In this document: positions 40,186 through 56,527 of the stretch, one piece after another
How positions within the stretch are numbered: position 1 is the stretch's first letter
Layout: the number at the start of each line of letters is the position of its first letter
Assembly (NCBI GenBank): GCA_035934315.1
Contig: DASYXZ010000090.1
Coordinates: 2,742-66,741, forward strand
Origin: Terriglobia bacterium
GTDB taxonomy: Bacteria > Acidobacteriota > Terriglobia > UBA7540
Direction of reading: 5' to 3'
Length of the DNA: 64,000 nucleotides
Notes under the pieces: model-generated
The model's input: the letters and a program-made list of their open reading frames with translations, nothing else
The model's database searches: none
What the model was told of the DNA's origin: nothing
Program-made: the position numbers and the translations under genes

Positions 40186-41457
40186 CTACTGGTGAGTAAG
40201 AATTTGTTCGGTTCTGACAGGCTGGCATCGGCGAATCAGAAAGAGCAACCCGGCAAGAGATCCCAAAGGCAGGAAGGCGGCCACGGTGAAAACTGGAAAC
40301 CATGAAAAGTGATCGATGACAACGCCGGTAAAAAGCGTCATCCCCATGTTCACAACCCCCTCGCCCATGCCGGTGATCCCGGTGACGCGGGCGAGGGTTG
40401 GTTCCGGGAAGACGTCGGTGATGACGGCGATAACGTGGTTGGCCATAACGTTGGCGCCGAGAATGCCTAGACCGATCAGCAGCGTGGCTTGTAGAGTGGA
40501 TGGGCTCCAGGGAGCGAGAAAGGTGCAGATGGCCGCGAGCAATGCTCCGATCATGAATGTTGTCTTGCGAGCCCGATCCACCGTCCATTTTCGGTGGATC
40601 AGTAAACCTGAAAGCGAACCCCCTCCGATCTGGCCGAACCCGCCCATCAAATACGAAAGGCTGGCGAAGCCCGCCATGGTCTTCAGATTCAGTCCCCGAT
40701 CCCGAACCAGGAAAAGCGGAAGCCAGTACCAATAGAACTGCGTCAGCGGCCCGGAAAGTGAGCGCATGAGAATAACCCCCCAAGTCTCCCTTAAACGAAG
40801 AAGATTGCGCACGGTGATATTGGGGGATGAATGCGGGTTGTCCCCCGTTCGACGCGGCAGAGGTCCCCGTCGCGCGGAGTACAGCCAGGGAATAATCCAA
40901 ACCAAGCCCGCCACGCTGGGCAAAAAAAAGGCGTAACGCCAACCGAACCGGGCCGCAATATACACCACCAACGGCGGGGCAATCGCAGACCCGAGAAGGC
41001 TCCCGCTGTCAAAAATCCCAAGCGCCAGGGCGCGTTGCTCGACCGGGAAAATTTCTCCCACCGTCTTAACCCCCGCCGAGTAATTGCCGCACTCAAACAG
41101 CCCCATCAGAAAACGCAGTCCACTGAAGGAGGAAACGGTTTGCGCCCATGCCTGCGCCATGTTGTTGAACGACCACCCCGCAAAAATAACAGGAAGACCA
41201 AACCTTGATCCGACCCGGTCGATGAAGGTGCCGGCAGGGATCTGCCCCAGGGTCATCCCCAGCATGAAGGCAAAGACAATGTAGGAATATTCGGTGTTTG
41301 ACAGGTGCAACTGAGAAAGCAGAGTGGGAGCAACCGTGGCCAGAACCAGCCGGTCAATAAAGTTGATGGTCAGGCAAAGCGCGAGCAGAACTGCAATCCA
41401 CCATGCCCAGGGAGTGGCGGAGGACCCAATCGACTTGAAATTGTTTTCTTCCTGCAC
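40186..41457 (-). CDS. MFS transporter, anionic sugar (hexuronate ExuT-like / ACS family)
   Basis: 423 aa and 12-TM-like. The segments INFIDRLVLATVAPTL, GQIPAGTFIDRVGSRFG and GLFECGNYSAGVKTVGEIFPVEQRALALGIFDSG are typical of ExuT/ACS-family MFS. The start codon is GTG 41457. Confidence 0.8.
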   Translation of the reverse strand: MQEENNFKSIGSSATPWAWWIAVLLALCLTINFIDRLVLATVAPTLLSQLHLSNTEYSYIVFAFMLGMTLGQIPAGTFIDRVGSRFGLPVIFAGWSFNNMAQAWAQTVSSFSGLRFLMGLFECGNYSAGVKTVGEIFPVEQRALALGIFDSGSLLGSAIAPPLVVYIAARFGWRYAFFLPSVAGLVWIIPWLYSARRGPLPRRTGDNPHSSPNITVRNLLRLRETWGVILMRSLSGPLTQFYWYWLPLFLVRDRGLNLKTMAGFASLSYLMGGFGQIGGGSLSGLLIHRKWTVDRARKTTFMIGALLAAICTFLAPWSPSTLQATLLIGLGILGANVMANHVIAVITDVFPEPTLARVTGITGMGEGVVNMGMTLFTGVVIDHFSWFPVFTVAAFLPLGSLAGLLFLIRRCQPVRTEQILTHQ

Positions 41458-41726: not shown

Positions 41727-44087
41727 ATGACACGACGTGAATTTGCGTCAACACTCACCGGGGCTGGCATCCTTGTGTCCAAACTCGGGACTGAATCCGG
41801 GGAAGCCAGTGAGGGAATGGAGCAGAAGAACGGAGAAGGCGCGCCGGGACCCGCGAGCGATGCGGGCGTGGATTACAGAAATCCGAAGCTCCCCATCGAA
41901 CAACGAACGGCAGATTTATTGAGCCGGATGACGCTGGAAGAAAAAGTGGAGCAGTTGAGGGGCGGGAAAACATCGAGCTACGGCATTCTCGACACCACGG
42001 GAAAATTCACGGAAAAGGATATCCGCGGAAATTTCAGGCAGATTTACGACATGCACTCACGCCGGAGCCCTCATGACCAGGCGGTGTATCGGAACGCCTT
42101 GCAACGATACGCAGTGGAAAAGACGCGCCTCGGCATCCCGCAAATCTTCCAGGACGAGGCGCTCCACGGCTACACGGCAGAGAACGCAACCAGCTTTCCG
42201 CAGGCGATTGCCTTGGGGAGCACTTGGGACCCCGACCTGGTTCAGAGGGTGTTCACAGCCACCGGGGACGAGGCGGCCTCGGCGGGCATCAACCAGGTTT
42301 TTGCTCCGGTTATCAACCTGGCGCGCGACCCGCGCTGGGGCCGCACTGAAGAAACCTATGGCGAGGATCCTTATTTATGCGCCCGCATCGGTGTGGCCGC
42401 CATCAAGGGGTTGCAGAGCGGGAATTTTATGATTGACCGGCACCATGTGCTGGCCACCGCAAAACACTTTGCCGCACTGGGCGAGTCGTACGGTGGCCGC
42501 AACACGGCCCCGGCGAATTGGTCCGAGCGCGACCTGCGGGAAGTCTTCCTTGTTCCGTTTCGAGCGGCGGTCCAGGAAGCCCAGGTGGGAAGTGTGATGG
42601 CCGCCTATAACGAGATCAATGGCGGCATCCCCTGCCATATAAATACTTGGCTCTTGGGAGACATTCTGCGCGGGGAATGGGGATTCCGTGGCTACGTCAC
42701 CTCAGACGGCGCGGGGCTCGAGATGCTTGTCGACAAGCACCATGTCGCCACCGACTTCGCCGGGGCGGCGCCCATGGCGCTGGCGGCGGGCCTCGATTAC
42801 GACCGCTCAGGAGGCGCAGTCTATGTCAATTTGTTGGACCAGGTGCGCGCGGGCAAGGTTCCGGAAAGCCAAATCGATCGAGCCGTGTCTTGTATTCTGG
42901 CGACGAAGTTCCGGCTCGGGCTATTCGATAATCCCTACGTGGACCCCGACTACGCGCAGCGAATCACCAACTGCGAAGAACATCGGAAGCTGGCGCTTGA
43001 AACCGCGCAGAAATCCATTGTGCTACTGAAGAACGAAGGCAACCTACTGCCCCTCGATTTGAAGAAACTCAAGACCATCGCAGTGATCAGCCCGGACGCG
43101 GGCGACGCGCACCTGGGTGGCTATAGCCGTCCACCCGCGAGCGGTGATGTCAGCCTCCTGCAAGGGATCCGCGAACGCGCCGGATCGTCAGTCCAGGTGG
43201 TTTACGCCCAAGGCTGCAAGATCACCACCGGCACCCGGGGTAACGTAACGCTTCCAAATCCCAACGCCCAAGTTGAAAGCATCCGCGCCGCAACCGAAGT
43301 CGCCCGCAAGGCGGATGTGGCGATTCTGGTTGTGGGAGGCAATGAAGCTACGTGTCATGAGGCGAGCGACCGAAATCCGGGCGACCGTGATTCGCTCGAC
43401 ATGGCGGGCATGCAAGATCAACTGATCCAGTCGGTGGTTGATACCGAAACTCCGACGGTGGTGTTTCTGATTAACGGTCGTCCGCTCTCCATCAACTACG
43501 CGGCCGAACACGTGCCGGCCATCCTGGAAGGTTGGTACCTCGGGCAGGAGGGCGGCACAGCAGCGGCTCAAGTGCTATTCGGTGACGTCAACCCGGGCGG
43601 AAAGTTGACGATCACCTTTCCACGCTCCGTGGGCGACTTGCCGGCATACTACTATCATAAGCCTTCGGCCGAGGTGCCTTATCTGTTCAAGAAGCCGGGC
43701 CCGCTCTTCCCTTTTGGCCACGGCCTGAGCTATACCACCTTCAAGTTTTCCAACCTTAAACTATCGGCTGCTCGGATTGCTCCCGAAGGCGAGACTACCG
43801 TCAGCGTGGATGTGATCAACACGGGCTCGCGCGAAGGCGACGAGGTCGCGCAACTCTACATCCGCGACCAGGTGAGTAGCGTGACGCGGCCGGTGAAGGA
43901 ACTGAAAGGTTTCCGACGCGTCCACCTGAAGCCGGGCGAAACCGTGACGGTCCGATTCAAGCTGACGCCCGCCGAACTCGGCTTTTACAACGTGGACATG
44001 CATTGGGTTGTCGAGTCCGGCACGTTCGACATCATGGTCGGGTCGAGTTCCGTGGAGACGATCAGCACATTACTGGAGGTCGTTTAG
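41727..44087 (+). CDS. GH3 beta-glucosidase/beta-xylosidase-like exo-glycosidase (BglX-like), exported
   Basis: 786 aa. It has MTRREFASTLTGAGILV, NLARDPRWGRTEETYGEDP, KHFAALGESYGG, the nucleophile region GFRGYVTSDGAG and a C-terminal fibronectin-like domain (VSVDVINTGSREGDEVAQLYIRD). AGGAGG lies upstream of the ATG. Confidence 0.9.
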   Translation: MTRREFASTLTGAGILVSKLGTESGEASEGMEQKNGEGAPGPASDAGVDYRNPKLPIEQRTADLLSRMTLEEKVEQLRGGKTSSYGILDTTGKFTEKDIRGNFRQIYDMHSRRSPHDQAVYRNALQRYAVEKTRLGIPQIFQDEALHGYTAENATSFPQAIALGSTWDPDLVQRVFTATGDEAASAGINQVFAPVINLARDPRWGRTEETYGEDPYLCARIGVAAIKGLQSGNFMIDRHHVLATAKHFAALGESYGGRNTAPANWSERDLREVFLVPFRAAVQEAQVGSVMAAYNEINGGIPCHINTWLLGDILRGEWGFRGYVTSDGAGLEMLVDKHHVATDFAGAAPMALAAGLDYDRSGGAVYVNLLDQVRAGKVPESQIDRAVSCILATKFRLGLFDNPYVDPDYAQRITNCEEHRKLALETAQKSIVLLKNEGNLLPLDLKKLKTIAVISPDAGDAHLGGYSRPPASGDVSLLQGIRERAGSSVQVVYAQGCKITTGTRGNVTLPNPNAQVESIRAATEVARKADVAILVVGGNEATCHEASDRNPGDRDSLDMAGMQDQLIQSVVDTETPTVVFLINGRPLSINYAAEHVPAILEGWYLGQEGGTAAAQVLFGDVNPGGKLTITFPRSVGDLPAYYYHKPSAEVPYLFKKPGPLFPFGHGLSYTTFKFSNLKLSAARIAPEGETTVSVDVINTGSREGDEVAQLYIRDQVSSVTRPVKELKGFRRVHLKPGETVTVRFKLTPAELGFYNVDMHWVVESGTFDIMVGSSSVETISTLLEVV

Positions 44088-44312
44088 AAATTACCCGAGT
44101 GTCCCGGAAAAAACCGCTCCAGCAATAGTGGCGTTTCCAAATATGAGTTGGCGCGGAGTTACCTTTGGTAGAGTTTCAGAGGCAGAGAGACGGAAGTCGA
44201 GCGAGAGAGGCGGATGGGACGCCTGGTTCGAGCCGGTGAGATCGAGAAAGCGTAAAAGCCCGGCGATTATGGCGCCAACCGAGTCTTGGCCAGGGATAAA
44301 ATCTGCCTTCCG

Positions 44313-45566
44313 CTATTTTGAGACCAATGCAAGTGCCCGACCGCCATTCCGGAGTGATTGTTCCGCCGCGAGCGAGATACGGATTGCTTCGCGCCCGACC
44401 TCTCCGCTCGAAAACGGCTGTTCGCCAGTAGTCATTGAATGAAGAAAGGTCTTATGCACGCGATAGGTTGACATTTCCATGTCGCACGCCATTGAGTCCC
44501 AGTGGGGATGCTTTTTCTTGAGATCCGTCCAAACGCCCTTTTCGGCAGGCTCAAAGTAGGGAACAGCGATTCGCCCGGCTTTCCCCTTGTATGGGGTGAT
44601 GACCACGCCTCCATCCTCAGTTCCCCACTCGGGAATCATTTCGCCCTGCGCGCCATAAAAACGCATGACCAATCCATCATTAACACCGGGCGTAAATAAA
44701 CTGAAACCGAAAATGCAGCGAGCCTTGTTTAGAAACTCGATGAGGAGTTCGGCGTTGTCAATGGTCTCTCGGTCGACGAAGACATTATTGCCGCCTTGAG
44801 CGTCAATGCGAGAAGGCTCAGCGCCGACCAGCCAGTGGATAACGTCGAGCTCGTGGATTCCATCTTCTAGCAGCGAGCCGCCCGTCGTAAAGTTGAGAAG
44901 CCGCCAATTGGTTAGCTTGCCTGTGTTAGGATCCGTATACTTCCAGCTCTTGGGATTCCAATCGCCGCGAAACAGCGCGGCATACACGATCTCTACTTTT
45001 CCAATGGGGCCCTGGCGGATCAGGTCCGCCATGCGGTGGAAGACAGGCGAGTATCGCCACTCGAAGCCTACTTGCAATATGCGCTGGGTCTGGGCGGCGG
45101 TCTCGATCATGCGGGCCGCATCCGCCAGATCGGTGGCCACCGGCTTTTCAGTCAAAACATGCTTCCCGGCCTTCAGCGCGTCTGTCGCCACTTGCGCATG
45201 CAAGAAATTGGGGACCACCACCACAACGGCGTCCAGGTCCGGATGGGCGGCCAGCATGCGACGATAATCACTGTACCCGGCAGGTTTCCCTCCACAGATT
45301 TTCAAGCCTTCATGTAAGTTTTCGGAAGTAATGTCGCACAGGGCGACGATCTCCACCTCGGGGAGATAGTCGCGGAGAATGGGCAGATGACTCCCTCGCG
45401 CTCGAGCCCCGGTCCCGACCACACCGTATCGCCATCTTCGTGGCTTTCCTGATTGCGTCGTTGTCCCCCGTGCGAGCTCCGGCGCCATGATCATTAAGCC
45501 CGCTGCGGTAGCAGCCTTGTCCATAAATTCTCTTCGCCCCAACTTATTCCCGGAACCCTCGCTCAT
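44313..45566 (-). CDS. Gfo/Idh/MocA-family NAD(P)-dependent oxidoreductase, Tat-exported (copy 1)
   Basis: It begins MSEGSGNKLGRREFMDKAATAAGLMIMAPELARG (Tat). It has the Rossmann segment YGVVGTGARARGSHL and the segment GKHVLTEKPVAT. GGGAGGAAG lies upstream of ATG 45566. It is a paralogue of 48181-49389. Confidence 0.85.
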   Translation of the reverse strand: MSEGSGNKLGRREFMDKAATAAGLMIMAPELARGTTTQSGKPRRWRYGVVGTGARARGSHLPILRDYLPEVEIVALCDITSENLHEGLKICGGKPAGYSDYRRMLAAHPDLDAVVVVVPNFLHAQVATDALKAGKHVLTEKPVATDLADAARMIETAAQTQRILQVGFEWRYSPVFHRMADLIRQGPIGKVEIVYAALFRGDWNPKSWKYTDPNTGKLTNWRLLNFTTGGSLLEDGIHELDVIHWLVGAEPSRIDAQGGNNVFVDRETIDNAELLIEFLNKARCIFGFSLFTPGVNDGLVMRFYGAQGEMIPEWGTEDGGVVITPYKGKAGRIAVPYFEPAEKGVWTDLKKKHPHWDSMACDMEMSTYRVHKTFLHSMTTGEQPFSSGEVGREAIRISLAAEQSLRNGGRALALVSK

Positions 45567-45653
45567 TGTCTTCCTCCCTATAAATGCTCGATCCATTCTC
45601 AACGGCGGTGACGCAGGCCTGAGACTCGATTAGTCTTTTCGGAGAATCCCTCG

Positions 45654-46979
45654 TTACTCCTCGTGGTCGGCGGGGCTATCAGGGCCGCTTTCGCCGGCAA
45701 AGGGCCAGTTGACGTTCAGCCGCAATTCCTGCTCGCGAACTTTTGGCGGAACCTTATCCACGCGCAAATTTTCGAACCAGTGCACTCCGGTCTTGCCCGC
45801 CACCAGAATGTCTTTATCACCGTCTTCGTCGATGTCGGTCACAATGATTTGAGTACCGATTTCGGCCGTGCCGTTATAGCTGATCGGGAAACGCGTGAAG
45901 GTGGCGGTTTTGCGATCAATTTTGTAATAGAAAATGCAAAGCGGCTCGTAAAGTCCGGGGTCGGGATCGCCGCGATATCGCTTGCCGGTAATCAGTTCCA
46001 ATTCTCCGTCATCATCAATGTCGGCCAGCTTCAGCGCGTGGGCTTCGGAAAATGATTCGTCAATGACATGCCTTTCCCATGTGCGCCGTCCCTGGCTGAA
46101 TTTCTGCTCCAGCCAATAAAGTCCGAACGAGTGGCCATGTCCATAGATGATGTCCATCTTGCCGTCCGCGTTCACGTCGTATCCTAAGATGGGAAAGCCG
46201 GCTTCACCCAGCTCCCATTCCGGATGCCACTTCCATTGGTCGCGGTCAGCGTCAACGTTTTCGAGCCAGCCGTGGACGGAAAGCAGGTCCGGCTTGCCGT
46301 CGCCGTTGATGTCCGCGACGCCAACCCCGTGGCCGTCAGCCGTTTTGCCGCCCACCTCGTGCACGACGGGCTTGGGGCCTGCGAAGTTGATCCAGATCAG
46401 GTTGGAAGGCCGATAGTGGGCCACGGCGATGTCCGCAACGCCGTCACCGTTGATATCGGCGTGAACCATGCCCTCGGTCGCGGTCGAATGGCAGATGAGG
46501 TGTTGCTCCCAGAAGGTATCGGGTTTCTTTGGGTTCTCAAACCACCACACGCCGTCGGTCTGCCACGCGGCGGTCACGACGTCGAGGGTCCCATCATGGT
46601 TAACGTCCACCGGAAACTGAGCGCACTCCGCCACAAACTCGGTCTTGCTCTCGCCCGCAATGCGGAACGGCCAGACGCTTACATAACGCCACTGATGCCT
46701 TTTCCACACCGTGCCGAGCGGCCCGGGATTTTCATACCAATAGGCTCCGCTCACGATGTCCGGCTTTCCGTCACCGTTCATATCCATCACGGAGATCGCC
46801 TCGGCGTGATCGGTTCCAATTCGATGGGAGAGGAAAACGTCCGGACGCTGGGACACAGGCGTAGTTGTGGTTCCGCTTGGGGCGGCTGCCGCCGGAGCAG
46901 AGCGCGGCGCGGGTGCAGCCGTCAGTGCAGGTGCCGCCGCTGCGGTCAATCCGAGGCTCAGGAACTTGCGACGATGCAT
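45654..46979 (-). CDS. FG-GAP/VCBS-repeat beta-propeller protein, Tat-exported (copy 2)
   Basis: It begins MHRRKFLSLGLTAAAAPALTAAPA (Tat). Its blades include MDMNGDGKPDIVSGAYWYENPG, VDVNHDGTLDVVTAAWQ, ADINGDGVADIAVAHY, ADINGDGKPDLLSVHGWLEN, YDVNADGKMDIIYGHGHS, ADIDDDGELELITGKRYRGD and TDIDEDGDKDILVAGKTGVHWFEN. Confidence 0.8.
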   Translation of the reverse strand: MHRRKFLSLGLTAAAAPALTAAPAPRSAPAAAAPSGTTTTPVSQRPDVFLSHRIGTDHAEAISVMDMNGDGKPDIVSGAYWYENPGPLGTVWKRHQWRYVSVWPFRIAGESKTEFVAECAQFPVDVNHDGTLDVVTAAWQTDGVWWFENPKKPDTFWEQHLICHSTATEGMVHADINGDGVADIAVAHYRPSNLIWINFAGPKPVVHEVGGKTADGHGVGVADINGDGKPDLLSVHGWLENVDADRDQWKWHPEWELGEAGFPILGYDVNADGKMDIIYGHGHSFGLYWLEQKFSQGRRTWERHVIDESFSEAHALKLADIDDDGELELITGKRYRGDPDPGLYEPLCIFYYKIDRKTATFTRFPISYNGTAEIGTQIIVTDIDEDGDKDILVAGKTGVHWFENLRVDKVPPKVREQELRLNVNWPFAGESGPDSPADHEE

Positions 46980-47125
46980 AAGACCCCCTCGGGTGGAATG
47001 TTCACTTTGACTTTAGCAATGTCTCTTGAAAGATCCACGACCTCTCCTCAAGATGCTGGCAGGTCATGTTTCTCGCGCTCTTGAGACGATCAGAGCATCA
47101 CTCGAAGCGGTTAAGAAACAGGCAA

Positions 47126-48046
47126 TCAAACACCAGTGATTTGCCTGAGATATGCCCGATCCTGTCGAAGCGTATCTTCAGGATGCTGCAGGGGATGAGG
47201 ATAATTGCGCTCATCTTCAATTTCCAGCCACCCTGACCAGTCGCTTTTCAGCAACGGCGCGACCACACCTTTCAAATTCACATCCCCCTCTCCGAGCTTG
47301 GTATAAATGAGCTTGCCGGAATCTTCTAATTTCACATCCTTGAGATGGTAAATCCGAATCCTTCTGAAATGCTCAGCTGAAAAATCAGCCGGCTTGACCA
47401 ACCCAACGGCATGGCCCACGTCAAAGCACAGGCAGACTATCTCCGGGTCCGTGTCCCGCAGGAGAAGACTCATCGGCGTGGGGTCGCCCTCGAACTCGTG
47501 CCGGTGGTTGTGGTAGCAAAGTTCCACGCCCTCCGCTTTAACCGCATTGCCCAGCCGATTAAGGGCGTCAGTCCAAACGCCCATGAGATTGAGGTCCAAA
47601 TGACCTCCAAGCTGCGGGAAGCTTCCGGTACCGATAAGCTGGTAGCCTCCGCCCATCTCCGCAATGTAACCCGCAATCCTGCGCAGCGATTCGATCTCTC
47701 CAGGTATTTTGTCCTTGTCCAGCAGCCTCCCCGGACAATACAGCCCCGACAACTGTACATGGTGGGCTGCAAAATCTTTGCGGCATTCGGCGGCCTGGTT
47801 GAAACGGGCGCTCAAAGCCTTATAGTTGGTTTCGAACCCCTTGTATTTCAGGCGGGCCAGTGAGTCAGCAATCCGCAACAGGTCATCGTAGCTCTTGATG
47901 GGCATACCCCAAGCATTGGTTTGGGCGCCAATGTGCAGGCGCTCAGCGCGGCTCGGTGGAGTCGCCTTCAGCTTCCCAGTGGCAGCGAGAAGCGCCAGTG
48001 CGCCCGAACTCTTTTCTAGAAAGTCACGCCGATTGAACCTGATCAA
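47126..48046 (-). CDS. Sugar phosphate isomerase/epimerase (xylose-isomerase-like TIM barrel), Tat-exported
   Basis: I chose the TTG start at 48046, which is preceded by GGAGGG. This gives MIRFNRRDFLEKSSGALALLAATGKLKA (Tat). The TIM-barrel motifs are ELCYHNHRHEF, CFDVGHA and the C-terminal WLEIE. The ORF is open upstream to GTG 48127, but that part is occupied by a palindromic repeat. Confidence 0.8.
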   Translation of the reverse strand: MIRFNRRDFLEKSSGALALLAATGKLKATPPSRAERLHIGAQTNAWGMPIKSYDDLLRIADSLARLKYKGFETNYKALSARFNQAAECRKDFAAHHVQLSGLYCPGRLLDKDKIPGEIESLRRIAGYIAEMGGGYQLIGTGSFPQLGGHLDLNLMGVWTDALNRLGNAVKAEGVELCYHNHRHEFEGDPTPMSLLLRDTDPEIVCLCFDVGHAVGLVKPADFSAEHFRRIRIYHLKDVKLEDSGKLIYTKLGEGDVNLKGVVAPLLKSDWSGWLEIEDERNYPHPLQHPEDTLRQDRAYLRQITGV

Positions 48047-48096
48047 TAGTTGCCCTCCGCAAAGAGAATACAACCATAGCCACCGCAAACTCCAGG

Positions 48097-48180
48097 CAGG
48101 CTGATGAAAAACTGAGTAGCGCCGCACTTTAAGGCCCGGCGCTACGAAAAACCATAGTCATCGATTTTTTCATCAGCCTG
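48097..48180. repeat. Nested palindromic element bounded by 15-nt inverted termini CAGGCTGATGAAAAA / TTTTTCATCAGCCTG (element 1)
   Basis: The termini at 48097-48111 and 48166-48180 are perfect reverse complements. The inner 9-bp hairpin is GTAGCGCCG (48116-48124) / CGGCGCTAC (48137-48145). The element abuts the stop codon (48181-48183) of the Gfo/Idh/MocA copy 2 gene. Confidence 0.6.
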
Positions 48181-49389
48181 CTAAAGACTCTCGTCATCCC
48201 AGCCCACTGGGTTTCCGGTTCGCAATGAACGCTCGGAAGCCAGCGAGATGTGAATCGCGTCCTTTCCGACCTTTCCATTCAAAAGGGGAGGCTCTCCGGT
48301 CGTCATTGATCGTATAAACGCCAGGTGCTCACGATAAGTTTCAATGTCGAGATGCCCATCCGTGACCTGGCTTTTCCGCAACTCCTCCTCTTCGGGTCGA
48401 AGGTCAGGCACAGGAACTTTTTCTGATTTACCGCTGTAATAGTGGATGACGATCAACCCCTGGTGGCCATCCCGTTCCAGGTGCATTTCGGCTTTGGAGC
48501 CGAAGAAGCGCATGGTGGGCCCCTCCGGAGTCCCCGGTGTAAAGATGGTGAACCCAAAATTGCATTTGACCTCGTTGGAGAATTGAATCAGCAATCCCGC
48601 GTGGTCCACCGTTTCTCGGTCGCGGAAAATATTGTTGCCGCCCACAGCCTCGATGCGTTGCGGCTCGGCGTCAACCAGCCAATGAATCAGATCGAGCTCG
48701 TGGATACCATCCTCCAGCAAGGCACTCCCGCAGGTCAGTGTCAGAAACCGCCAGTTGGTTCTTTCGCCGGTCTTGGGATCGGTATATTTCCAGCTTCGTG
48801 GGTTCCAATCCCCCCGGAAAAGCGCAGCGAAGACGTACTCCACGCTGCCGATCTCGCCTTGGTGGATCAAGTCGTGCATCCGTTGGAATGAATTCGAATA
48901 CCGCCTCTGGAAACCCACCTGGAGAATATTTCCGTGCTCCTCCGCCGCTCGCATCATGCGGTCAGCGTCAGCCAGATGCGTGGCCAGGGGCTTCTCGGTC
49001 AGAACATGCTTGCCGGCTTCGAGAGCCGCGATGGTGACTTCCGCGTGTTTGTAGTTGGGCACCACCGCGACAACCGCGTCAAGCTCAGGGTGCTGCGCTA
49101 ACATTTGGCGATAGTCAGAGTATCCCACGGTGGCAGGCCCGCAGATTTTGAGCCCCTCTTTCAGGTTTTCGGGCGTGATGTCACATAAGGCAACGATTTC
49201 GACTTCGGGGATATAATCGTGCAGGATTTTCAAGTGAGCCCCGCGGGACCGGTATCCCGAACCCACAATACCGTAACGAAGCTTCCGTGAAGTCGATGCG
49301 AAGGACTGCGACGGAACAGCAAGGCTTGCGGCCCCTGCAACCGCGCCAAAGAGGAAATCGCGTCGGGCTATTTTTGACGAATCTGACAT
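48181..49389 (-). CDS. Gfo/Idh/MocA-family NAD(P)-dependent oxidoreductase, Tat-exported (copy 2)
   Basis: It begins MSDSSKIARRDFLFGAVAGAASLAVPSQSFA (Tat). It has YGIVGSGYRSRGAHL and GKHVLTEKPLAT. By eye it is roughly 60-65% identical to copy 1 across the whole length. The start ATG 49389 follows a G-run; the ORF is open to 49452, but those codons lie inside repeat element 2. Confidence 0.85.
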   Translation of the reverse strand: MSDSSKIARRDFLFGAVAGAASLAVPSQSFASTSRKLRYGIVGSGYRSRGAHLKILHDYIPEVEIVALCDITPENLKEGLKICGPATVGYSDYRQMLAQHPELDAVVAVVPNYKHAEVTIAALEAGKHVLTEKPLATHLADADRMMRAAEEHGNILQVGFQRRYSNSFQRMHDLIHQGEIGSVEYVFAALFRGDWNPRSWKYTDPKTGERTNWRFLTLTCGSALLEDGIHELDLIHWLVDAEPQRIEAVGGNNIFRDRETVDHAGLLIQFSNEVKCNFGFTIFTPGTPEGPTMRFFGSKAEMHLERDGHQGLIVIHYYSGKSEKVPVPDLRPEEEELRKSQVTDGHLDIETYREHLAFIRSMTTGEPPLLNGKVGKDAIHISLASERSLRTGNPVGWDDESL

Positions 49390-49428
49390 GTCACCCCCCC
49401 CGAAGTCTCCAGACCGATACTCGCATAT

Positions 49429-49561
49429 CAGGAGGCTGATGAAAAACTCCAACTGTTTGTCATTCCGCGTGCAGCGAGGAATCTATGTGGTTGATTTCAA
49501 ACCAGAGCGAGATTCCTCGCGTCGCTCCGTATGACAATTTGGGGCGTTTTTCATCAGCCTG
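49429..49561. repeat. Nested palindromic element with the same termini (..GGCTGATGAAAAAC / GTTTTTCATCAGCCTG) as element 1 but a different, longer internal hairpin (element 2)
   Basis: The left terminus is at 49434-49446 and the right terminus at 49547-49561. The inner inverted repeats are TGTCATTCCGCG..CGAGGAATC (49458-49483) and GATTCCTCGCG..CGTATGACA (49511-49536). Confidence 0.6.
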
Positions 49562-49645
49562 TTAGATTTCACCATGGTGCAAATGCAATAACGCATGCTT
49601 AGCTTTTTGACTCCAAGATTGTCCTGCCGCAGCCGGTATGGGGCT

Positions 49646-52600
49646 TCAGAACACCAGCTTCAAGGCGAACTGGAGAACGCGAGGATTACCCAGATTGCCC
49701 ACATCGTTCAAGCCGTTCCCCTTTGTCCCCTGGATTTTCCCAAAATTACTGGTGTTGTTGACGGTTGAATTCGGGTTGCCAAAATTAGCGTGATTGAAGA
49801 AGTTGAAGGCTTCAAACCGGAATTCAGCACGCAGGCGCTCGGTGATTGAGGTTGATTTGAGAAGTCCGAAATCCACGTTCCAGGCGCCTGGGCCGCGTAG
49901 ACTGTTGCGGCCGACGTTGCCGAACGTGCCCTTGGGGTTAGCGACGAAGGCCGCGGTATTGAAATACTCTTGCAATTGAGTCACGCCCGCGGGCCTGGCG
50001 ATATTGGCGTTGATTTGGTCTGCGGTGTCGGAGTTCGGCGAGCCGGAGCCGGAATTGTCTTGTCCCGCAGAGACAGTGAACGGACCACCAGTCTGTGCCG
50101 TGATGATAGAGGTCGTCTCCCAGCCGTTGAGGAACTTGTCGGCCGGACCGTGGAAAGCCCTCACCCTCGGTAAGTCGTAGACCAGCGAGACATCGGCGCT
50201 GTGAGTGAGGTCCCAATTACAGGGACCGTAGCCGTTGTTGATATCGAACTTGTTGTTGAAGGCGCTACCGCCGCCGGCATCGGCTCCAATTGTTTCGCCG
50301 GACTCGTTGTCCATGCACCTTGAATAGACGTAGTTGCCGATCAGGTTCACCCCATGGGTCATCCGCTTGGTGACGCTGACCTGGAGGGCGTTGTAATTGG
50401 CAAATTCCCACGGCGTCGCCAGGGCGAGCGGAGAGTAATTTGGATAGACCCTGACTTTCGTGGAGGGAAAGATGGGGTTGATTTGCCGGGTTGCCATCAC
50501 CTTGAGCTGATGGTTTCCGACGTATGAGACAGAGACCCCCAGGTCGCGCAGAATTTGCCGCTCTGCCGTGAAGTTCCATTCTTCCGTATAGCCGGTTTTG
50601 GCGTGTGGATCGAGCAGTGAAGTGTTGACGGGAAGAAGGAACTTGTAGGTCTTGAGGGCGCTCGTGGGCGGCGGTGTGAACGGGAAGGGGTCACCGCCCG
50701 GGAAACCCGCGTAGGGGTCGTCTATGCTCGCCGGCGGAGGAACGTCCATCGTGACCGACTGCGAGCGGAAGGCGCTGCCCGAGTTCGAGGTGCGAATCAT
50801 GTTCAGCGGAATGGTGTTATAGAAGATCCCGAACGCACCACGGACAACCGTCTTGCCGTTCCCCTGAACATCCCATGCGAACCCTACGCGCGGCGCGAAG
50901 TTGTTCCAATCGGCGGGCCAGATGGAATCGCGAATTCCGGGATCGCCGGTGAAGAGCAGCCCGGGCGGCGCCAGAGGCGCGACTGTGGATTGGGCGCCCG
51001 CTTCAAATCCGGCCGCCGGACCCAGCAGATCGTAAGCCGGCAGCCAGGGCTCCCAACGCAGCCCCAAGTTGAGAGTGAGCCGAGGCAACACCTTCCAGTC
51101 ATCTTCAATCCAAGGCGCCCAGTTTGTCTGCCGGAAATCCTGAGGGGTGCGGGCGCTTTGGAAGAAATTGTTCGGCAGGCCCAGAAGGAAATCGGCAAAG
51201 GAGTCGCCGCAATTCTTGCAGCCGGCAGGGCCGGTGCGAGAGCCATTGAAAGTAAATTGCCCGGAGGCGAAGGATTTGTCCGCCGAAAACATCCGGTCGC
51301 GCTCGACTTCCATTCCGAACTGAAGTAAGTGCTTGCCGCGCGTCCAGGTAAACTGGCCGCGGTATTCCCAAACTCCAGGGTATCCGAGAAGGCCGCCGCC
51401 GCTGAAGAGGTTCACGTAATTCTTAATGTTGACGCGCATCTCAGGCGCGGCGCCGGCGATGGCCTCGGGAATCTTCGCCCCCGCAGACTGGAGCGTGATC
51501 GGCTCCTTGGGAATCTGCGTCCGCGCCGTGCGTGTGTAGCCGAAGGAGCCTACGAACAACAAATTCGGGCTGAACGTGTGGGTATCCGTGATCAGGAGAT
51601 TCTGGTCGAGGAAGAAGTTCTTGGCGTTAATGCCCGTGAAGGGGCTGGTCGGACGGACGTAATCAAATTCATCCAGGTAATAGCGGGCGGTAAAGTGATC
51701 GTTGACGCCGAAAACACGGTCGACCCGCACGTCCATCTGGTCATCGGTTGCCGGAAGGGCGGGTGTCAGTTGCGCCCGGTTCGGAGCCAACCCGGGCGTG
51801 GGCAGGGGAATCAACGGCAGCAGCTTGAGCCCAACGGCGTCGAAGCTGGTTGAGGGAATCATATTGCCACTGAACTGCTTGCCCGTCGCGGGGTTAATGA
51901 TCGTCCTGCCAGTCGATGAAAAGTCGCCGCCTCTTTGGGCCAGCGTGGGAACGGTCACAAGGGATGGGCTTGCCGCGCCCACCTTACGCGTGCCCTGGTA
52001 TGACCCAAAGATAAAAGTCTTGTCTTTCTGAACTGGTCCCCCGAAAGTGGCGCCAAACTGGTTGCGCTTGAAGGGTGTCGTGGTCGTGGCGAAGAAGTTT
52101 CTGGAATCGAGAGCATCGTTCCGTAGAAACTCGAATACCTCGCCGTGGAACTGATTGGTCCCCGAACGCGTGGAGAGAAGCATGGTGGCGCCCGGGCCGC
52201 TATAGGCGGCGCTGAAGTTCGAGGACTTCATGGTGAACTCTTGCAGCGCGTCGGGGTTGGGCAAGTTAGGCACGTTGCCGAACTCAGCGTTCTTGTAGCT
52301 GACACCGTCCATAACATAATTGTTATCCACGGAGCGTAACCCATTGCTGGTAACTCCGTCGTTCTCCTCCTGGTTGCCTTCCGTTCCCGTGCCGGTCGTT
52401 TGTGTGCCGGCAGTGAGCGTGACCAGTTGCAGGGCGTTGCGGCCGTTGAGCGGCAGCTCGCGCATAGCGCGGCTGGTGATTGTCGTTTGGACCTCGGACG
52501 AAGTCGATTGCACGACCGGGGCGGATGCGGTGACCTCCACGGATTGCACCGTCCCTCCGACCGTGAGCTGTAAATGAAGGTCCACGCTCTGCCCGGTCAG

Positions 52601-52930
52601 GAGTTGTAATCCGCTGCGGGTCAGCTTTTGAAAACCGGCATGGGTAACAACAAGCTCATACCCGCCGATGGGCAAAGAAGGAAACCGGAATAGGCCCTCG
52701 GCGTTGGTCACGGCATTATAGGTCAATGCAGTTTGGGTGTTTCTGCACGCCACGCTGGCCTGAGGCACGACTGCGCCTGTCGCATCCACGACCGTGCCCG
52801 TCAACAGGGCCGTTGATTGTGCGAGAAGAAAAGAGGGCGCCAGCCACGCGGCAAAGACAAAAAGCAAAACATACTTCACCTTGCGCCTGAGCAAGCCTTC
52901 AGTGGCAACTCGGATGTTGAGCTTTTCCAT
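49646..52930 (-). CDS. TonB-dependent outer-membrane receptor with carboxypeptidase-regulatory-like domain (receptor 4)
   Basis: The start ATG 52930 (MEKLNIRVATEGLLRRKVKYVLLFVFAAWLAPSFLLAQ) is preceded by GGAGGAAATTGAAT. It has GTVVDATGAVVPQASVACRNTQT..EGLFRFPSLPIGGYE and the plug segment LPLNGRNALQLVTLTAG. The C-terminus is ..NPRVLQFALKLVF. Confidence 0.9.
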   Translation of the reverse strand: MEKLNIRVATEGLLRRKVKYVLLFVFAAWLAPSFLLAQSTALLTGTVVDATGAVVPQASVACRNTQTALTYNAVTNAEGLFRFPSLPIGGYELVVTHAGFQKLTRSGLQLLTGQSVDLHLQLTVGGTVQSVEVTASAPVVQSTSSEVQTTITSRAMRELPLNGRNALQLVTLTAGTQTTGTGTEGNQEENDGVTSNGLRSVDNNYVMDGVSYKNAEFGNVPNLPNPDALQEFTMKSSNFSAAYSGPGATMLLSTRSGTNQFHGEVFEFLRNDALDSRNFFATTTTPFKRNQFGATFGGPVQKDKTFIFGSYQGTRKVGAASPSLVTVPTLAQRGGDFSSTGRTIINPATGKQFSGNMIPSTSFDAVGLKLLPLIPLPTPGLAPNRAQLTPALPATDDQMDVRVDRVFGVNDHFTARYYLDEFDYVRPTSPFTGINAKNFFLDQNLLITDTHTFSPNLLFVGSFGYTRTARTQIPKEPITLQSAGAKIPEAIAGAAPEMRVNIKNYVNLFSGGGLLGYPGVWEYRGQFTWTRGKHLLQFGMEVERDRMFSADKSFASGQFTFNGSRTGPAGCKNCGDSFADFLLGLPNNFFQSARTPQDFRQTNWAPWIEDDWKVLPRLTLNLGLRWEPWLPAYDLLGPAAGFEAGAQSTVAPLAPPGLLFTGDPGIRDSIWPADWNNFAPRVGFAWDVQGNGKTVVRGAFGIFYNTIPLNMIRTSNSGSAFRSQSVTMDVPPPASIDDPYAGFPGGDPFPFTPPPTSALKTYKFLLPVNTSLLDPHAKTGYTEEWNFTAERQILRDLGVSVSYVGNHQLKVMATRQINPIFPSTKVRVYPNYSPLALATPWEFANYNALQVSVTKRMTHGVNLIGNYVYSRCMDNESGETIGADAGGGSAFNNKFDINNGYGPCNWDLTHSADVSLVYDLPRVRAFHGPADKFLNGWETTSIITAQTGGPFTVSAGQDNSGSGSPNSDTADQINANIARPAGVTQLQEYFNTAAFVANPKGTFGNVGRNSLRGPGAWNVDFGLLKSTSITERLRAEFRFEAFNFFNHANFGNPNSTVNNTSNFGKIQGTKGNGLNDVGNLGNPRVLQFALKLVF

Positions 52931-52970
52931 ATTCAATTTCCTCCAGACCAAAACCCGACGCAATGAATGA

Positions 52971-53026
52971 AGGCTACTAAGGCCGAATATCGAATGTCAA
53001 GCTAAAAATTGGTATCTTATATATTA
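52971..53026 (-). promoter_or_regulatory. Putative promoter of receptor 4 with upstream TGGTAT/ATAT motif
   Basis: The minus sense reads TAATATATAAGATACCAATTTTTAGC-TTGACA-N18-TAGCCT. On the plus strand these elements are tgtcaa 52995-53000 and the motif TTGGTATCTTATATATTA at 53009-53026. Confidence 0.4.
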
Positions 53027-53189
53027 GATTCGTGCGATCTTTTGCACGGGTATCTCAAAAGCTATCACCGGGCCCGCTGATTGGGCTGGGGCGGGCGCGT
53101 TCAAGAGTGGCGCCGCGCCGGTGGGCGTCATGGCGGGCAACAGGGAAATCAAGTTTTCAGCGTTGAACCCTTCCCGGGCGGCGCGGGAA

Positions 53190-54137
53190 TCAATAAAGGA
53201 GCAATTGATCAATCCGCCCGCTGAGGTCACGAAGGTAGGACTCCGGACCGGGGGCCAGTTCGGTGGTGACAATCCCCGAGTAGCCGACATCGATCAGGGC
53301 CTGGCGCACCGCCTTCCAATCAACGGTCCCTTCGCCGAGGTTCACAAAGTGGCGGGTTTTGGGGTCGTAGTCTTTCAGGTGAATTTTTGCGATTCGCCCG
53401 CCCAGCGCGCGAATCCAATCCTGCGGATAACCGAAGGGCATGACATTGCCGACGTCAAAGTAGGCTTTGAGCCAGGGGCTTTTGAACTCGTCCACATAAG
53501 CGGCGAATTCGACAGGGCTGAGCAAGAATTTATTCCAGACCTCTTCCACGGCGATAACGACCTTCTGCTCCGCGGCAAACGGAATGACCGATCGCAGGTT
53601 TTTCTGCGAGCGAACCCAGGCCTCGTGGTAGGAGACAGCCGGCGTAACCAGGGCGGGGACGACAAGGACGGTACTTCCGCCGTAGAGGCTGGCTTCACAC
53701 AAAGAGGTCCGCACCGCATCCAACCTTTTGCTGACGATGGAGGAATCCGGACTCGAAAGCGGCAACTCCGTCCAAAGGCCGTTGGTGACACCATGGATTT
53801 TGATGTTCGCCGCATCCGCCGACTTCTTAATTTCGTCAGCCTCCTGCAGGTCGGTCACGGTGTTTGCTTCGACGTAATGGAAGCTGGCGTCCCGCGCCAT
53901 GTTGAAACGCTCGGCATAGCTAAGTTGCTTCGGCAACATCCGCAGTTGGACAGCCTTGTGGACCTTGCCGACCAAGGTCTGAGAGTCGCTGGATATAGCA
54001 TTGGAATCGGCGGAGGCCCCACGACCGTCCTTGAAGGCCGACGCCCGGAATGTCCTGCTGGAGAGGTCTCCAGCCAGTGTTCCCGCCATGGCCACTGCGC
54101 CTTCCATAACCTGCCGTCGAGAAGTACTGTTGGGCAC
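53190..54137 (-). CDS. Sugar phosphate isomerase/epimerase (xylose-isomerase-like TIM barrel) with Tat-like signal
   Basis: It starts at GTG 54137, preceded by AAGGAG, and begins MPNSTSRRQVMEGAVAMAGTLAG. It has the TIM-barrel motifs VIAVEEVWNKF, YFDVGNV and HLKDY, plus GYSGIVTTEL. Confidence 0.8.
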   Translation of the reverse strand: MPNSTSRRQVMEGAVAMAGTLAGDLSSRTFRASAFKDGRGASADSNAISSDSQTLVGKVHKAVQLRMLPKQLSYAERFNMARDASFHYVEANTVTDLQEADEIKKSADAANIKIHGVTNGLWTELPLSSPDSSIVSKRLDAVRTSLCEASLYGGSTVLVVPALVTPAVSYHEAWVRSQKNLRSVIPFAAEQKVVIAVEEVWNKFLLSPVEFAAYVDEFKSPWLKAYFDVGNVMPFGYPQDWIRALGGRIAKIHLKDYDPKTRHFVNLGEGTVDWKAVRQALIDVGYSGIVTTELAPGPESYLRDLSGRIDQLLLY

Positions 54138-54179
54138 CCTGCGCTCCTTTGCCTAAAGTTGCGCCATCGTTCTTCCACT

Positions 54180-55031
54180 TCAGAAAAGCGAAGGGCAGAT
54201 GGGCCGGGCGGTGGCCTCATCCGTGTGAACTATACAATCCGCATGCCCCTGCAGCAGTGTGGAAGGATAATCGGACCGGGGTTCGTCCAACACGGAAATG
54301 CGGAAGATGGCTCGGTGGCGCTCTCCACCGGCAAGAAACAAGCGGATGCGCCGCGACGCAAGGATATCGCGCATACCCAGGGTCACGGCCATCGGAGGGA
54401 TGAGATCGGAACTCCCTCCCGTGGCGTAGATACTTTGCACCACGATCGAGTCATCGCCCAGCACCACCACACGGGTGCGTGATTCGCGCAACTGCTGGAC
54501 TGAGATTCGATGCCACCGTGATATAAGCGGCTCGTTGAAGGCCACGTGTCCGTGATAACCGATTCCGCCGAAACATGTATCGATGCCACCGACTCTCTGA
54601 ATCTGCTCGCTGATCCCGTCCGGGTCGAAAGGAGTGGGAAAGTGAACATGGTCAGGCCTGGGTCTCAACTCCGGGTCCAGTTTTTCGAAGACTTGTCGCC
54701 GCATGAAACCCTCGAAGCTCAGAGGGTGCTCGATGGGCAAAGGCCGGCCCTCCCAGTCCAGGAATTCATCCATTTGAAAGGTGTGCGCCTCTTTCCAGCT
54801 TATACGTTCTCGATTGCATATTTCCACAAGCTTGAAATACTGGGCGACGGGACCCACCGGCAGGATCCAGCGCGTCGGCTGCTTCCGCTCGTTATTCGCG
54901 CAAATCTCATCAGCCATCGAGCGGGCAAAGTAACCCAGCATCGACGGAATATCAGGGGAAAGGCGGACGCCCAGTTTTGCGCGCTTTATCAAGCTCTCAA
55001 CGGGCAGGGCGAGTATTTCCTCCAGGCTCAT
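54180..55031 (-). CDS. Glucosamine-6-phosphate deaminase / 6-phosphogluconolactonase superfamily protein (NagB-like), substrate unknown
   Basis: 283 aa. The segments FQMDEFLD and CFGGIGYHGHVAFNEP are NagB-type motifs. It has no signal peptide. Confidence 0.7.
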   Translation of the reverse strand: MSLEEILALPVESLIKRAKLGVRLSPDIPSMLGYFARSMADEICANNERKQPTRWILPVGPVAQYFKLVEICNRERISWKEAHTFQMDEFLDWEGRPLPIEHPLSFEGFMRRQVFEKLDPELRPRPDHVHFPTPFDPDGISEQIQRVGGIDTCFGGIGYHGHVAFNEPLISRWHRISVQQLRESRTRVVVLGDDSIVVQSIYATGGSSDLIPPMAVTLGMRDILASRRIRLFLAGGERHRAIFRISVLDEPRSDYPSTLLQGHADCIVHTDEATARPICPSLF

Positions 55032-55064
55032 TTCCTTGTCCTTATGATCTGAACCGCGGCCATC

Positions 55065-55847: not shown

Positions 55848-56134
55848 CCCTTTCCCTCCTCGATCAGGCCTGCGCGCTGCGGGCCGGGCTTGTTGCTAAA
55901 GCCATTCCGAACCGCGTCGATTTAAACCAGCCAGTCAACAGGGCGCGTTCCCTATGAATCCGCCCACCCGAATCTGCCTTGTTGCCTTGAATGCCTTTTC
56001 AATGTATCACGCCGAGACCCGCCTGCAAGCCATACTCACTTGCAAGGCCACAACGCGTTAGCCCCGACGCTTGCCACGACTACAAGCCTGCCCCGCTTGT
56101 GAAGTGCTTTGCGGCCAACCGTGTAAAGTAATTC

Positions 56135-56163
56135 TTGACTTTCACTAATATCTGATATACGTT
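56135..56163 (+). promoter_or_regulatory. Candidate promoter of the split UxaA-family operon, with the TGATAT motif inside the spacer/-10 region
   Basis: TTGACT lies at 56135-56140, followed by TTCACTAATATCTGATATACG. The motif ATATCTGATATAC occupies 56148-56160, and the -10 candidates are GATATA/TATACG. The site lies in a 396-nt divergent intergenic region. Confidence 0.35.
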
Positions 56164-56522: not shown

Positions 56523-56527
56523 GAAAA

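Follow-up and report, generated by a model that had tools for sequence, protein, structure and literature searches.

A candidate periplasmic module for oxidative glycoside cleavage, with an FG-GAP propeller among its parts, in a Terriglobia bacterium

Oxidative ('non-Koshland') cleavage of glycosides was worked out between 2020 and 2024, mainly in gut Bacteroidota and in Agrobacterium. Here we describe a locus that appears to belong to this kind of chemistry, in a 64,000 nucleotide stretch of contig DASYXZ010000090.1 (positions 2,742 to 66,741, hereafter the window) from the metagenome-assembled genome of a Terriglobia bacterium of the Acidobacteriota. It is a tetrad of four consecutive minus-strand genes, which in order of transcription code for a Gfo/Idh/MocA oxidoreductase (GfoB2, 48181–49389; Pfam GFO_IDH_MocA 2e-26, plus C-terminal domains), a xylose isomerase-like TIM barrel (TIM_B, 47126–48046; AP_endonuc_2 8e-20), a VCBS/FG-GAP propeller (FG-GAP_B, 45654–46979; FG-GAP_3 1e-31, FG-GAP 7e-23) and a second Gfo/Idh/MocA paralogue (GfoB1, 44313–45566; GFO_IDH_MocA 1.4e-24). 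A preliminary description of this DNA had named the same four genes, positions and families, and both the open reading frames (ORFs) and their Pfam matches agree with it. It had also suggested that oxidation and elimination take place in the periplasm, and this is still the best reading, with 3-keto-beta-glucopyranoside-1,2-lyases as the top sequence and fold matches of TIM_B; we give a probability of roughly 55% to the tetrad being a periplasmic oxidative ('3-keto') glycoside-cleavage module in which the propeller is part of the same chemistry. The accompanying statement that the function of the system is not established no longer applies to the Gfo and TIM part, which fits a published 3-keto-glycoside pathway (PMC8121099, and the titles of PDB entries) and, judged by its sequences, is a distant member of an already published kind of system.

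The closest of the described systems are BT2156–BT2159 of Bacteroides and the AL genes of Alistipes (PMC8121099; PDB 8tcd/8tcr/8tct and 8tdf/8tdh/8tdi, released 2024, the identity of the 8tc and 8td entries being taken from their PDB titles). BT2156 is an IolE-like TIM barrel, BT2157 a DUF1080 3-keto-glucoside hydrolase, BT2159 a second Gfo, and BT2158 a Gfo exported by twin-arginine translocation (Tat), for which a periplasmic oxidation of disaccharides that uses bound NAD(P) has been proposed (Liu et al. 2021, PMC8121099). The tetrad resembles these systems in having two Gfo proteins, at least one of them Tat-exported or predicted to be so, a xylose-isomerase-like TIM barrel closest to the 3-keto-beta-glucopyranoside-1,2-lyases, and a predicted periplasmic location tied to outer-membrane glycan import. 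It differs from them in several ways. None of the window ORFs scanned matches DUF1080 (PF06439), and the VCBS/FG-GAP propeller fills that slot; all four of the tetrad proteins have twin-arginine (RR) signals; the identities are ~20–30% and the NCBIfam equivalog cut-offs are unmet; and the host is acidobacterial, with TonB receptors but no SusD.

In the Agrobacterium/Caulobacter route a periplasmic FAD-dependent GMC glucoside 3-dehydrogenase (LacABC type) is followed by the beta-eliminase AtOGE and the 2-hydroxy-3-keto-glucal hydratase AtHYD (PDB 8bvk, 8ro4). The tetrad would share with it the order of a periplasmic oxidase and then a TIM-barrel eliminase or hydratase, AtOGE and AtHYD are both among the fold matches of TIM_B, and a second gene group in the window (module A, described below; the tetrad is module B) has a GMC protein together with a Gluconate_2-dh3 small subunit that carries a Tat signal. 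However, module B has an NAD-type Gfo and not a flavoprotein, and no propeller is described in those systems. The DgpA/DgpBC, CarA/CarBC and Escherichia coli YcjQRS systems also pair a Gfo or GMC 3-oxidoreductase with xylose-isomerase-like TIM barrels that act on 3-keto-glycosides, and they are connected to the window in that DgpA is the best PDB match of GfoB2 and YcjR is related to the TIM barrel of module A, although TIM_B matches the O-glycoside lyases better than DgpBC. To our knowledge these enzymes are cytoplasmic and no propeller accompanies them. A Gfo-family enzyme that is Tat-exported with bound nicotinamide cofactor and runs ping-pong redox chemistry in the periplasm is the glucose-fructose oxidoreductase (GFOR) of Zymomonas mobilis, the best PDB match of GfoB1, but GFOR binds NADP, oxidises C1 of free glucose and has no lyase partner.

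The best PDB sequence matches of TIM_B are 8tcs and 8tcd (6e-12), with the regions of the YHNH..HEF and DVGH metal motifs aligned. Its AlphaFold2 (AF2) model (pLDDT 93) has as top Foldseek matches 8tcr, 8tcd and 8tct, the Alistipes AL1 and B. thetaiotaomicron BT1 3-keto-beta-glucopyranoside-1,2-lyases (E 6e-16 to 4e-15, TMt 0.75–0.77), and further fold matches include the Agrobacterium tumefaciens glucal hydratase AtHYD and beta-eliminase AtOGE, the C-deglycosidases DgpBC/CGD, and the 3-keto-glucoside epimerase YcjR. TIM_B is a candidate exported 3-keto-glycoside 1,2-lyase (beta-eliminase), an assignment that holds at the level of the closest family. We note that one locus with a TIM_B homologue (L171) encodes a 531-aa fusion of a xylose-isomerase-like TIM barrel with Gluconate_2-dh3 (5402–6997), in a cluster that also has two GMC genes, a Gfo gene and two more TIM barrels; the fusion is a physical link of TIM barrels with the GMC dehydrogenase complex.

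GfoB1 and GfoB2 are 57% identical, and their nearest solved relatives are sugar 3-oxidoreductases (DgpA, the GH188 sulfoquinovosidase SqgA and the glucuronide-3-dehydrogenase 8tdi) and periplasmic GFOR. GfoB2 best matches the DgpA1/DgpA C-glycoside 3-oxidoreductases (7.5e-26), and GfoB1 best matches GFOR (1e-25), with the Caulobacter crescentus aldose-aldose oxidoreductase as a further match (3.5e-19). In both proteins a canonical EKP motif is present and beta2 ends in Asp (…VALCD), a residue typical of NAD binders at this position, so the pair is predicted to be of the NAD rather than the NADP type; the absence of an acidic residue at the beta2 end that marks GFOR-type enzymes is seen in neither. 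We regard GfoB2 as a candidate exported glycoside 3-dehydrogenase/3-ketoreductase. The idea in the preliminary description that such NAD(P)-type Rossmann enzymes are exported with their cofactor bound has precedents in GFOR and in BT2158 (PMC8121099).

All four tetrad proteins have an RR motif followed by a hydrophobic stretch (ARRDFLF in GfoB2, NRRDFLE in TIM_B, HRRKFLS in FG-GAP_B and GRREFMD in GfoB1). The consensus for Tat substrates is S/T-R-R-x-F-L-K and then a moderately hydrophobic region. The proposal that every one of the four is a Tat substrate is thus upheld at the level of the motif (RRxF[LM] and a hydrophobic region in 4/4) but not by the Pfam TAT_signal profile, which comes near its threshold for GfoB2 only (20.4 bits, cut-off 22.7), scores 9.4 bits for TIM_B and 7.7 bits for FG-GAP_B, and is not reported for GfoB1. 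A Tat route is mechanistically sensible for a cofactor-bearing Gfo and a metal-dependent TIM barrel. The RR motif is kept in 65 of 85 TIM_B homologues and in 66 of 120 FG-GAP homologues, most of the others having Sec-type signal peptides; because about half of the FG-GAP homologues carry such Sec-type signals, export of the propeller seems to be conserved but the export route does not. RR-type signals are also present on ~12 of the ~22 predicted exported proteins in the window, including the GH3 at 41727, a GH2 fragment (3–1223), a DUF5054 protein (1276–3357), the sulfatase at 28833 and a molybdenum oxidoreductase. Four RR signals in a row are therefore not as distinctive as they might seem, and we rejected the 'all-Tat' tetrad as a strong statistical signal; the abundance of these signals suggests that the organism uses Tat-like signals unusually broadly for glycan-active enzymes.

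The FG-GAP_B protein (441 aa) is a propeller alone, with seven blades and seven DxDxDG loops. A sequence search of PDB gave generic repeat matches only (CRTAC1, integrin), and a profile search gave weak matches, via the repeats, to the PL11 lyases YesW and YesX (6e-6, 1e-5) and to aldos-2-ulose dehydratase (AUDH). The AF2 model (pLDDT 82.7, pTM 0.81) has fungal AUDH as its three best Foldseek matches (4a7y/4a7z/4a7k; E 1e-12 to 1e-10, TMq 0.58), and the two proteins share a W-x-ENP...W..[HR].I.HS blade motif. In the fungus the GMC enzyme pyranose 2-oxidase reportedly supplies the keto-sugars that AUDH dehydrates (work of Claesson and colleagues in 2012). The fungal pair offers a parallel in which a GMC oxidase makes a keto-sugar and a seven-bladed VCBS-type propeller dehydrates it by beta-elimination. 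AUDH, whose propeller holds a Zn site, differs from FG-GAP_B in being ~900 aa long, since it also has a pair of cupin folds and, at its C-terminus, a lectin domain, and in acting on 2-keto monosaccharides in a eukaryote. It is a member of the VCBS family, whose propellers also include lectins and toxin scaffolds (PMC8023676). The PL11 rhamnogalacturonan lyases, the only other enzymatic relatives seen, are FG-GAP-like propellers that likewise catalyse beta-elimination on sugars, assisted by Ca. They have eight blades and ~600 aa as against the seven blades and 441 aa of FG-GAP_B, their matches rest on the generic DxDxDG repeats, and none of the 50 Foldseek matches listed is a PL11 enzyme.

The propeller belongs to a large family that has no name. 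At E<=1e-10 it has more than 4,400 word-matched hits, and in a profile search 3,006 of 1.84 billion representatives (clusters at 50% identity) reach E<=1e-30. The residues best kept across both lineages (FG-GAP_B and the FG-GAP_A of module A) and the fusions described below are H217, H283, E291, Q292, H304, D307, H314, R334, Y352 and K396, plus E60, E169 and W238. Because the top conserved positions are blade-specific (concentrated on blades 4–6 in relatives that are 34–41% identical), one pocket fits better than repeated lectin sites, and the asymmetric His/Glu/Arg constellation would fit better with one active site than with a multivalent lectin. Our tentative proposal, to which we give somewhat less than even odds, is that the family comprises metal-dependent keto-sugar/keto-glycoside beta-eliminases or glycal hydratases, AUDH-like in fold, and is an unrecognised catalytic part of oxidative glycoside cleavage, in a conserved module whose periplasmic sugar oxidoreductase can be either an NAD-type Gfo or an FAD-type GMC protein, and with recurrent fusions of the propeller to a 3-keto-disaccharide-hydrolase domain.

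The neighbourhoods of the propeller point to the same route. We gene-called the neighbourhood loci with a codon-usage-scored caller, and the FG-GAP_B orthologue set comprises 78 usable species-level loci (47–87% identity), nearly all from Acidobacteriota with one Rhodanobacteraceae metagenome-assembled genome (MAG). A co-directional Tat-Gfo gene adjoins the FG-GAP_B orthologue in 34 of the 78 by BLAST clustering. With stricter phmmer labels, Gfo accounts for 28 of 153 flanking genes versus 3 of 554 at a distance of at least four positions, or ~35-fold over the local background, and the best matches of these adjacent Gfo proteins are NCBIfam BT_2158_fam (5e-32) and PDB 8tdf/8tdh (2e-23). A PF06439 3-keto-disaccharide hydrolase gene is at position -1 or -2 in seven loci, and a TIM barrel is within three genes in only three; the remaining loci have lineage-specific housekeeping synteny. 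Loci in which a Gfo gene is followed by FG-GAP include some from MAGs assigned to Terriglobus (L049), Granulicella (L074) and Acidobacteriaceae. Of the 80 best genome hits all but the Rhodanobacteraceae contig are acidobacterial; that contig has a Tat-Gfo gene and then FG-GAP, plus a second divergent Gfo, and represents either horizontal transfer of the pair or a mis-binned contig.

Fusions provide a second line of evidence. Among the 150 best representatives, ~60 align with the whole profile in a single stretch. We scanned 30 of these that have extra domains, and in 12 of them there is a PF06439 domain, which precedes the propeller in six and follows it in six. The fused propellers are 34–41% identical to FG-GAP_B, the same distance as FG-GAP_A. 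Judged from these contexts, the propeller is a widespread partner of the 3-keto-glycoside route that had escaped recognition. Literature searches tying FG-GAP/VCBS proteins to Gfo, GMC, xylose-isomerase-like proteins or glycan use in Acidobacteria found nothing relevant, and we found no description of the coupling and fusion of the propeller with 3-keto enzymes, or of the exchange of GMC and Gfo before a fixed TIM–propeller pair (see below), both of which we consider new. Among the fusions we note P0263, P0258, P0326, P0236, P0242, P0243, P0248 and P0267, whose partners are a sulfatase, glucuronoyl-esterase/S9-like domains and long HEAT-repeat regions; one fusion combines HEAT, DUF1080 and the propeller in 1,254 aa.

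The preliminary description had pointed out that the tetrad parallels module A with another class of oxidoreductase, and this parallel is borne out: FG-GAP_A and FG-GAP_B are 36% identical, and relatives of FG-GAP_A occur behind either a GMC pair or a Tat-Gfo. Module A, also on the minus strand, has a GMC oxidoreductase (8770–10380; Pfam, NCBIfam and PDB matches), a Gluconate_2-dh3 small subunit of 191 aa with the Tat signal KRRTAIK (8181–8753; Pfam 3e-16), TIM_A of the ketose-3-epimerase type and without a signal (7302–8156; Pfam, NCBIfam and PDB matches), and FG-GAP_A (5835–7250, with the real start probably at 7145; Pfam). The small subunit sits between TIM_A and the GMC gene and gives module A one component beyond the ORFs of at least 200 aa, and the GMC protein, which lacks a signal of its own, presumably hitch-hikes on it. 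TIM_A matches D-tagatose 3-epimerase (3e-46) and YcjR (2e-22), and TIM_A and TIM_B give no BLAST match to each other.

We compared 80 metagenome loci with relatives of FG-GAP_A (L088–L167; 64–88% identity). In 71 of them a gene precedes that of the propeller, and in 65 of these 71 it is of the TIM_A type; the gene before the TIM_A-type gene is Gluconate_2-dh3 plus GMC in 21 loci and a Tat-Gfo with an M[ST]RRDF[NH]KS signal in 27. When these are dereplicated at 90% identity the TIM gene is kept in 22 of 23 informative clusters, with GMC in eight and Gfo in seven. This exchange before a fixed TIM–propeller pair is a natural experiment, and the downstream steps would therefore be independent of how the ketone is made. 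The proposal that an FG-GAP/TIM pair is the constant core accordingly stands for the module A lineage, but it fails for module B, to which it is not transferable because TIM_B is of another functional type, is exported and, as noted above, is not a constant neighbour. TIM_A orthologues in these loci start with MK[YF]GVNTMVWTT and none has a signal peptide; lying almost always between exported proteins, TIM_A may either be cytoplasmic and act on an imported product or be co-exported in a complex. The signal type of the FG-GAP_A relatives co-varies with the oxidoreductase partner, those behind GMC and the small subunit carrying the Tat motif GRRQFLKS and those behind Tat-Gfo having a Sec-like or anchor-like hydrophobic N-terminus (…ALWFIPRTEAQGSDEIPFRKH).

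A pathway can be proposed for the tetrad by analogy with those of Bacteroides/Alistipes and Agrobacterium. What we observed is the gene content, the export-signal motifs, the nearest families, the neighbourhood statistics and the domain fusions; from these we infer the regiochemistry, the substrate, the retention of cofactor and the catalysis by the propeller. An oligosaccharide or glycoside would enter through the TonB-dependent receptor, and a Tat-exported Gfo with bound NAD+ would oxidise a ring hydroxyl, most likely the C3-OH, to a ketone. The Tat-exported, metal-dependent TIM_B would then abstract the now-acidic C2 proton and eliminate the C1 group, giving the aglycone or next sugar and a 2-hydroxy-3-keto-glycal that would be hydrated in turn. 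Reduction of the resulting 3-keto-sugar by Gfo would regenerate the bound NAD+, so the cycle would be redox-neutral and need no free periplasmic cofactor. Between the two Gfo paralogues there is probably a division of labour, either by substrate or by redox half-reaction. The role we prefer for the propeller is that of a metal-dependent keto-sugar beta-eliminase or enone hydratase, similar to the AUDH propeller and acting beside or after the lyase.

Several observations weigh against this interpretation of the tetrad. Identities to characterised enzymes are ~19–30% and all of the NCBIfam equivalog cut-offs are missed by far, BT_2158_fam glycoside 3-dehydrogenase for example giving 73.5 and 71.1 bits for the two Gfo proteins (GfoB2 E 1e-20) against a cut-off of 750. 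Sequence cannot assign substrate or regiochemistry in the Gfo family, and GFOR, the best solved relative of GfoB1, oxidises C1 and not C3. The Gfo that adjoins most FG-GAP_B orthologues, although BT2158-like, is of a different subfamily (24–30% identical to GfoB1 and GfoB2), the four-gene arrangement is found in one close relative only, and co-transcription is at most plausible, with intergenic gaps of 87–256 nt and a promoter and terminator scan at chance level. The Tat function of the four signals is predicted from motifs. TIM_B homologues occupy many other contexts: with FG-GAP, TIM and MFS genes in L084; with FG-GAP, Gfo and MFS genes in L085, where the TIM barrels are 3 kb away; beside rhamnosidases in L086; beside GH20 and a sialidase-like gene in L170; and with two GMC genes, Gfo and the TIM::Gluconate_2-dh3 fusion in L171. 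For the propeller, the AUDH fold match is modestly better than those to non-enzymatic propellers (TMq 0.58 vs 0.43–0.54) and at 16% identity, the 71–81% identical orthologues whose contexts we read are solitary and lack an adjacent Gfo (in one case a longer AP_endonuc_2 protein is encoded ~2 kb off), and the other partners in the 30 scanned fusions (HEAT repeats in five, a sulfatase in one and an esterase-like domain in two) form a pattern like that of a binding module.

These last points bear on a less probable alternative, that the pathway is as proposed but the propeller is a non-enzymatic periplasmic glycan-binding or scaffold protein, lectin-like as in fungal PVL and the tachylectins, that holds the substrate or organises the oxidoreductase and lyase. 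Lectins and toxin scaffolds occur among VCBS propellers (PMC8023676), the varied fusion partners (DUF1080, sulfatase, esterase-like and HEAT) behave as those of a binding module would, many orthologues are alone in housekeeping synteny, and a W-x-x-H-x-I strand recurs in every FG-GAP_B blade, as does a Glu immediately ahead of the DxDxDG loop. It could also be, though this is speculation, that the constant order of a signal-less TIM_A before a signal-bearing FG-GAP_A means a complex. However, the best-kept residues are blade-specific and concentrated on blades 4–6, whereas in a multivalent propeller lectin they would recur from blade to blade; the closest solved structure by fold is that of an enzyme; and the bias towards keto-sugar partners (PF06439 in 12 of the 30 fusions) is much narrower than that of typical carbohydrate-binding modules. 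An enzymatic propeller is the preferred, if tentative, assignment.

Other explanations concern the Gfo proteins. GfoB2 aligns full-length with the GH188 SqgA sulfoquinovosidases 8qc3 and 8qc2 (6e-21, 2e-20) and GfoB1 does so partially (GH188 matches overall 6e-21 to 2e-19), and GH188 enzymes use a transient C3 oxidation by bound NAD+ (PMC10755693). The two proteins could thus be self-contained NAD+-dependent glycoside hydrolases of the GH4/GH109/GH188 type that carry out all steps in one site, with the TIM barrel and propeller serving other steps or substrates. We consider this quite improbable: GH188 is the best match for neither protein, DgpA and GFOR scoring higher; both lack the GGHGG acid/base loop of GH109, and no GH109 structure is among the PDB matches listed for them; and a lyase-type TIM barrel, which would be redundant beside a Gfo that does the elimination alone, lies between the Gfo genes and is kept there in the close relative L168. 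Similarly improbable is that they are periplasmic C1 oxidoreductases like GFOR or the aldose-aldose oxidoreductase, whose aldonolactones and alditols feed the neighbouring sugar-acid genes with no oxidative cleavage of glycosidic bonds. The GfoB1 matches given above would favour this, as would the lactonase-like Amidohydro_2, altronate/galactarate-type dehydratase GD_AH, LarA-like and Aldedh genes found by Pfam within 17 kb, gene types that recur near TIM_B homologues in L085, L087 and L169. But the nearest characterised relatives of TIM_B act on 3-keto-glycosides, the partners of FG-GAP are 3-keto-disaccharide-hydrolase domains and BT2158-like Gfo proteins, and the Asp that ends beta2 argues for NAD and not for the NADP of GFOR. 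Inositol catabolism, by an IolG dehydrogenase and an IolE dehydratase, had been named as an alternative in the preliminary description, and IolG (7e-39, 2e-35) and IolE (6e-18) are indeed the top-listed NCBIfam matches, with some TIM_B homologues labelled 'inosose dehydratase' by JGI. We rejected it, as the scores are far under the equivalog cut-offs (133.6 and 122.2 bits vs 355 for IolG; 65.3 vs 290 for IolE) and export signals on all four proteins do not suit the Iol pathway, which operates in the cytoplasm; among the Pfam matches of window ORFs there is no further iol family. Chance juxtaposition might be suspected from the fluid gene order among relatives, but the ~35-fold enrichment of Gfo beside FG-GAP and the domain fusions argue against it, and we consider either of these last two explanations highly improbable.

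The locus suggests that soil Acidobacteriota have the oxidative route built into their loci for glycan uptake, with the propeller as a fifth kind of component; no paper that we found connects a propeller with this route. Should the propeller be enzymatic, it would represent a new keto-sugar lyase/hydratase family with thousands of members that are now annotated as 'VCBS/FG-GAP repeat protein', and annotation of carbon turnover in soils and peat would be improved. Were it a binding or scaffold partner, there would still be an explanation for a pairing that is very common and has so far had none.

As the preliminary description had it, the tetrad is downstream of a TonB-dependent outer-membrane receptor ('receptor 4', 49646–52963, minus strand; OMP_b-brl_4 9e-229, CarboxypepD_reg 1e-19), which is directly upstream of GfoB2. 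The gaps from the receptor through the tetrad are 256, 134, 146 and 87 nt, and counts in a promoter and terminator scan of 44000–56600 were no higher than in shuffles; an operon is plausible for the tetrad, as a candidate only. A purine-rich run similar to a Shine-Dalgarno sequence precedes each of the four chosen starts, one of which is TTG, and the resulting protein lengths are the same as in the public gene calls, the 441 aa of FG-GAP_B being 100% identical to a 'Terriglobia bacterium' NCBI entry. Beyond the receptor, and also on the minus strand, are genes assigned by Pfam to a UlaE-like TIM barrel with an SRRQVM motif (TIM_C, 53190–54137; best PDB match UlaE, 1e-10), a 283-aa Glucosamine_iso-like protein (54180–55031) and Amidohydro_2 (55065–55847). 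The other side of the tetrad is flanked by the GH3 glycosidase with an RR motif (41727–44087, plus strand) and an MFS transporter (40186–41457, minus strand), both identified by Pfam.

The close relative L168, in which TIM_B is 90% identical, keeps the array of Amidohydro_2, the 283-aa protein, TIM_C, receptor, Gfo (402 aa), TIM (306 aa), FG-GAP (441 aa) and Gfo (415 aa). The pair of FG-GAP and then Gfo, with matching gene lengths, is present in both L085 and L168, and a run in L085 of a TIM barrel (296 aa), a Glucosamine_iso-like protein (285 aa) and a TIM_B-like protein resembles the upstream genes of the window. MFS genes adjoin FG-GAP in L081–L085.

Module A is flanked by genes for a Sec-signal protein with a GH79 C-terminal domain (10423–11898) and a protein with a GH42-like beta-galactosidase domain (4632–5831), both on the minus strand. 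Together with GH27 (27227–28384) and GH2 elsewhere in the window, these flanks offer hints of arabinogalactan or gum-type substrates. A Tat-signal molybdopterin oxidoreductase gene (Oxidored_molyb and Mo-co_dimer; 57877–59520, plus strand) is followed by one for a 120-aa protein with a CGVCH haem-binding motif, and the two look like a SorAB-type sulfite dehydrogenase pair; they adjoin the sugar-acid genes, which include the GD_AH dehydratase, LarA-like and aldehyde dehydrogenase genes and a GntR regulator. A radical-SAM/SPASM protein with a C-terminal SEC-C motif, similar to anaerobic sulfatase maturases, is encoded at 32105–33490 (minus strand) near the sulfatase gene at 28833–30347, and the same kind of radical-SAM/SPASM gene (3892–5265) is beside the FG-GAP, TIM_B and MFS trio of L084.

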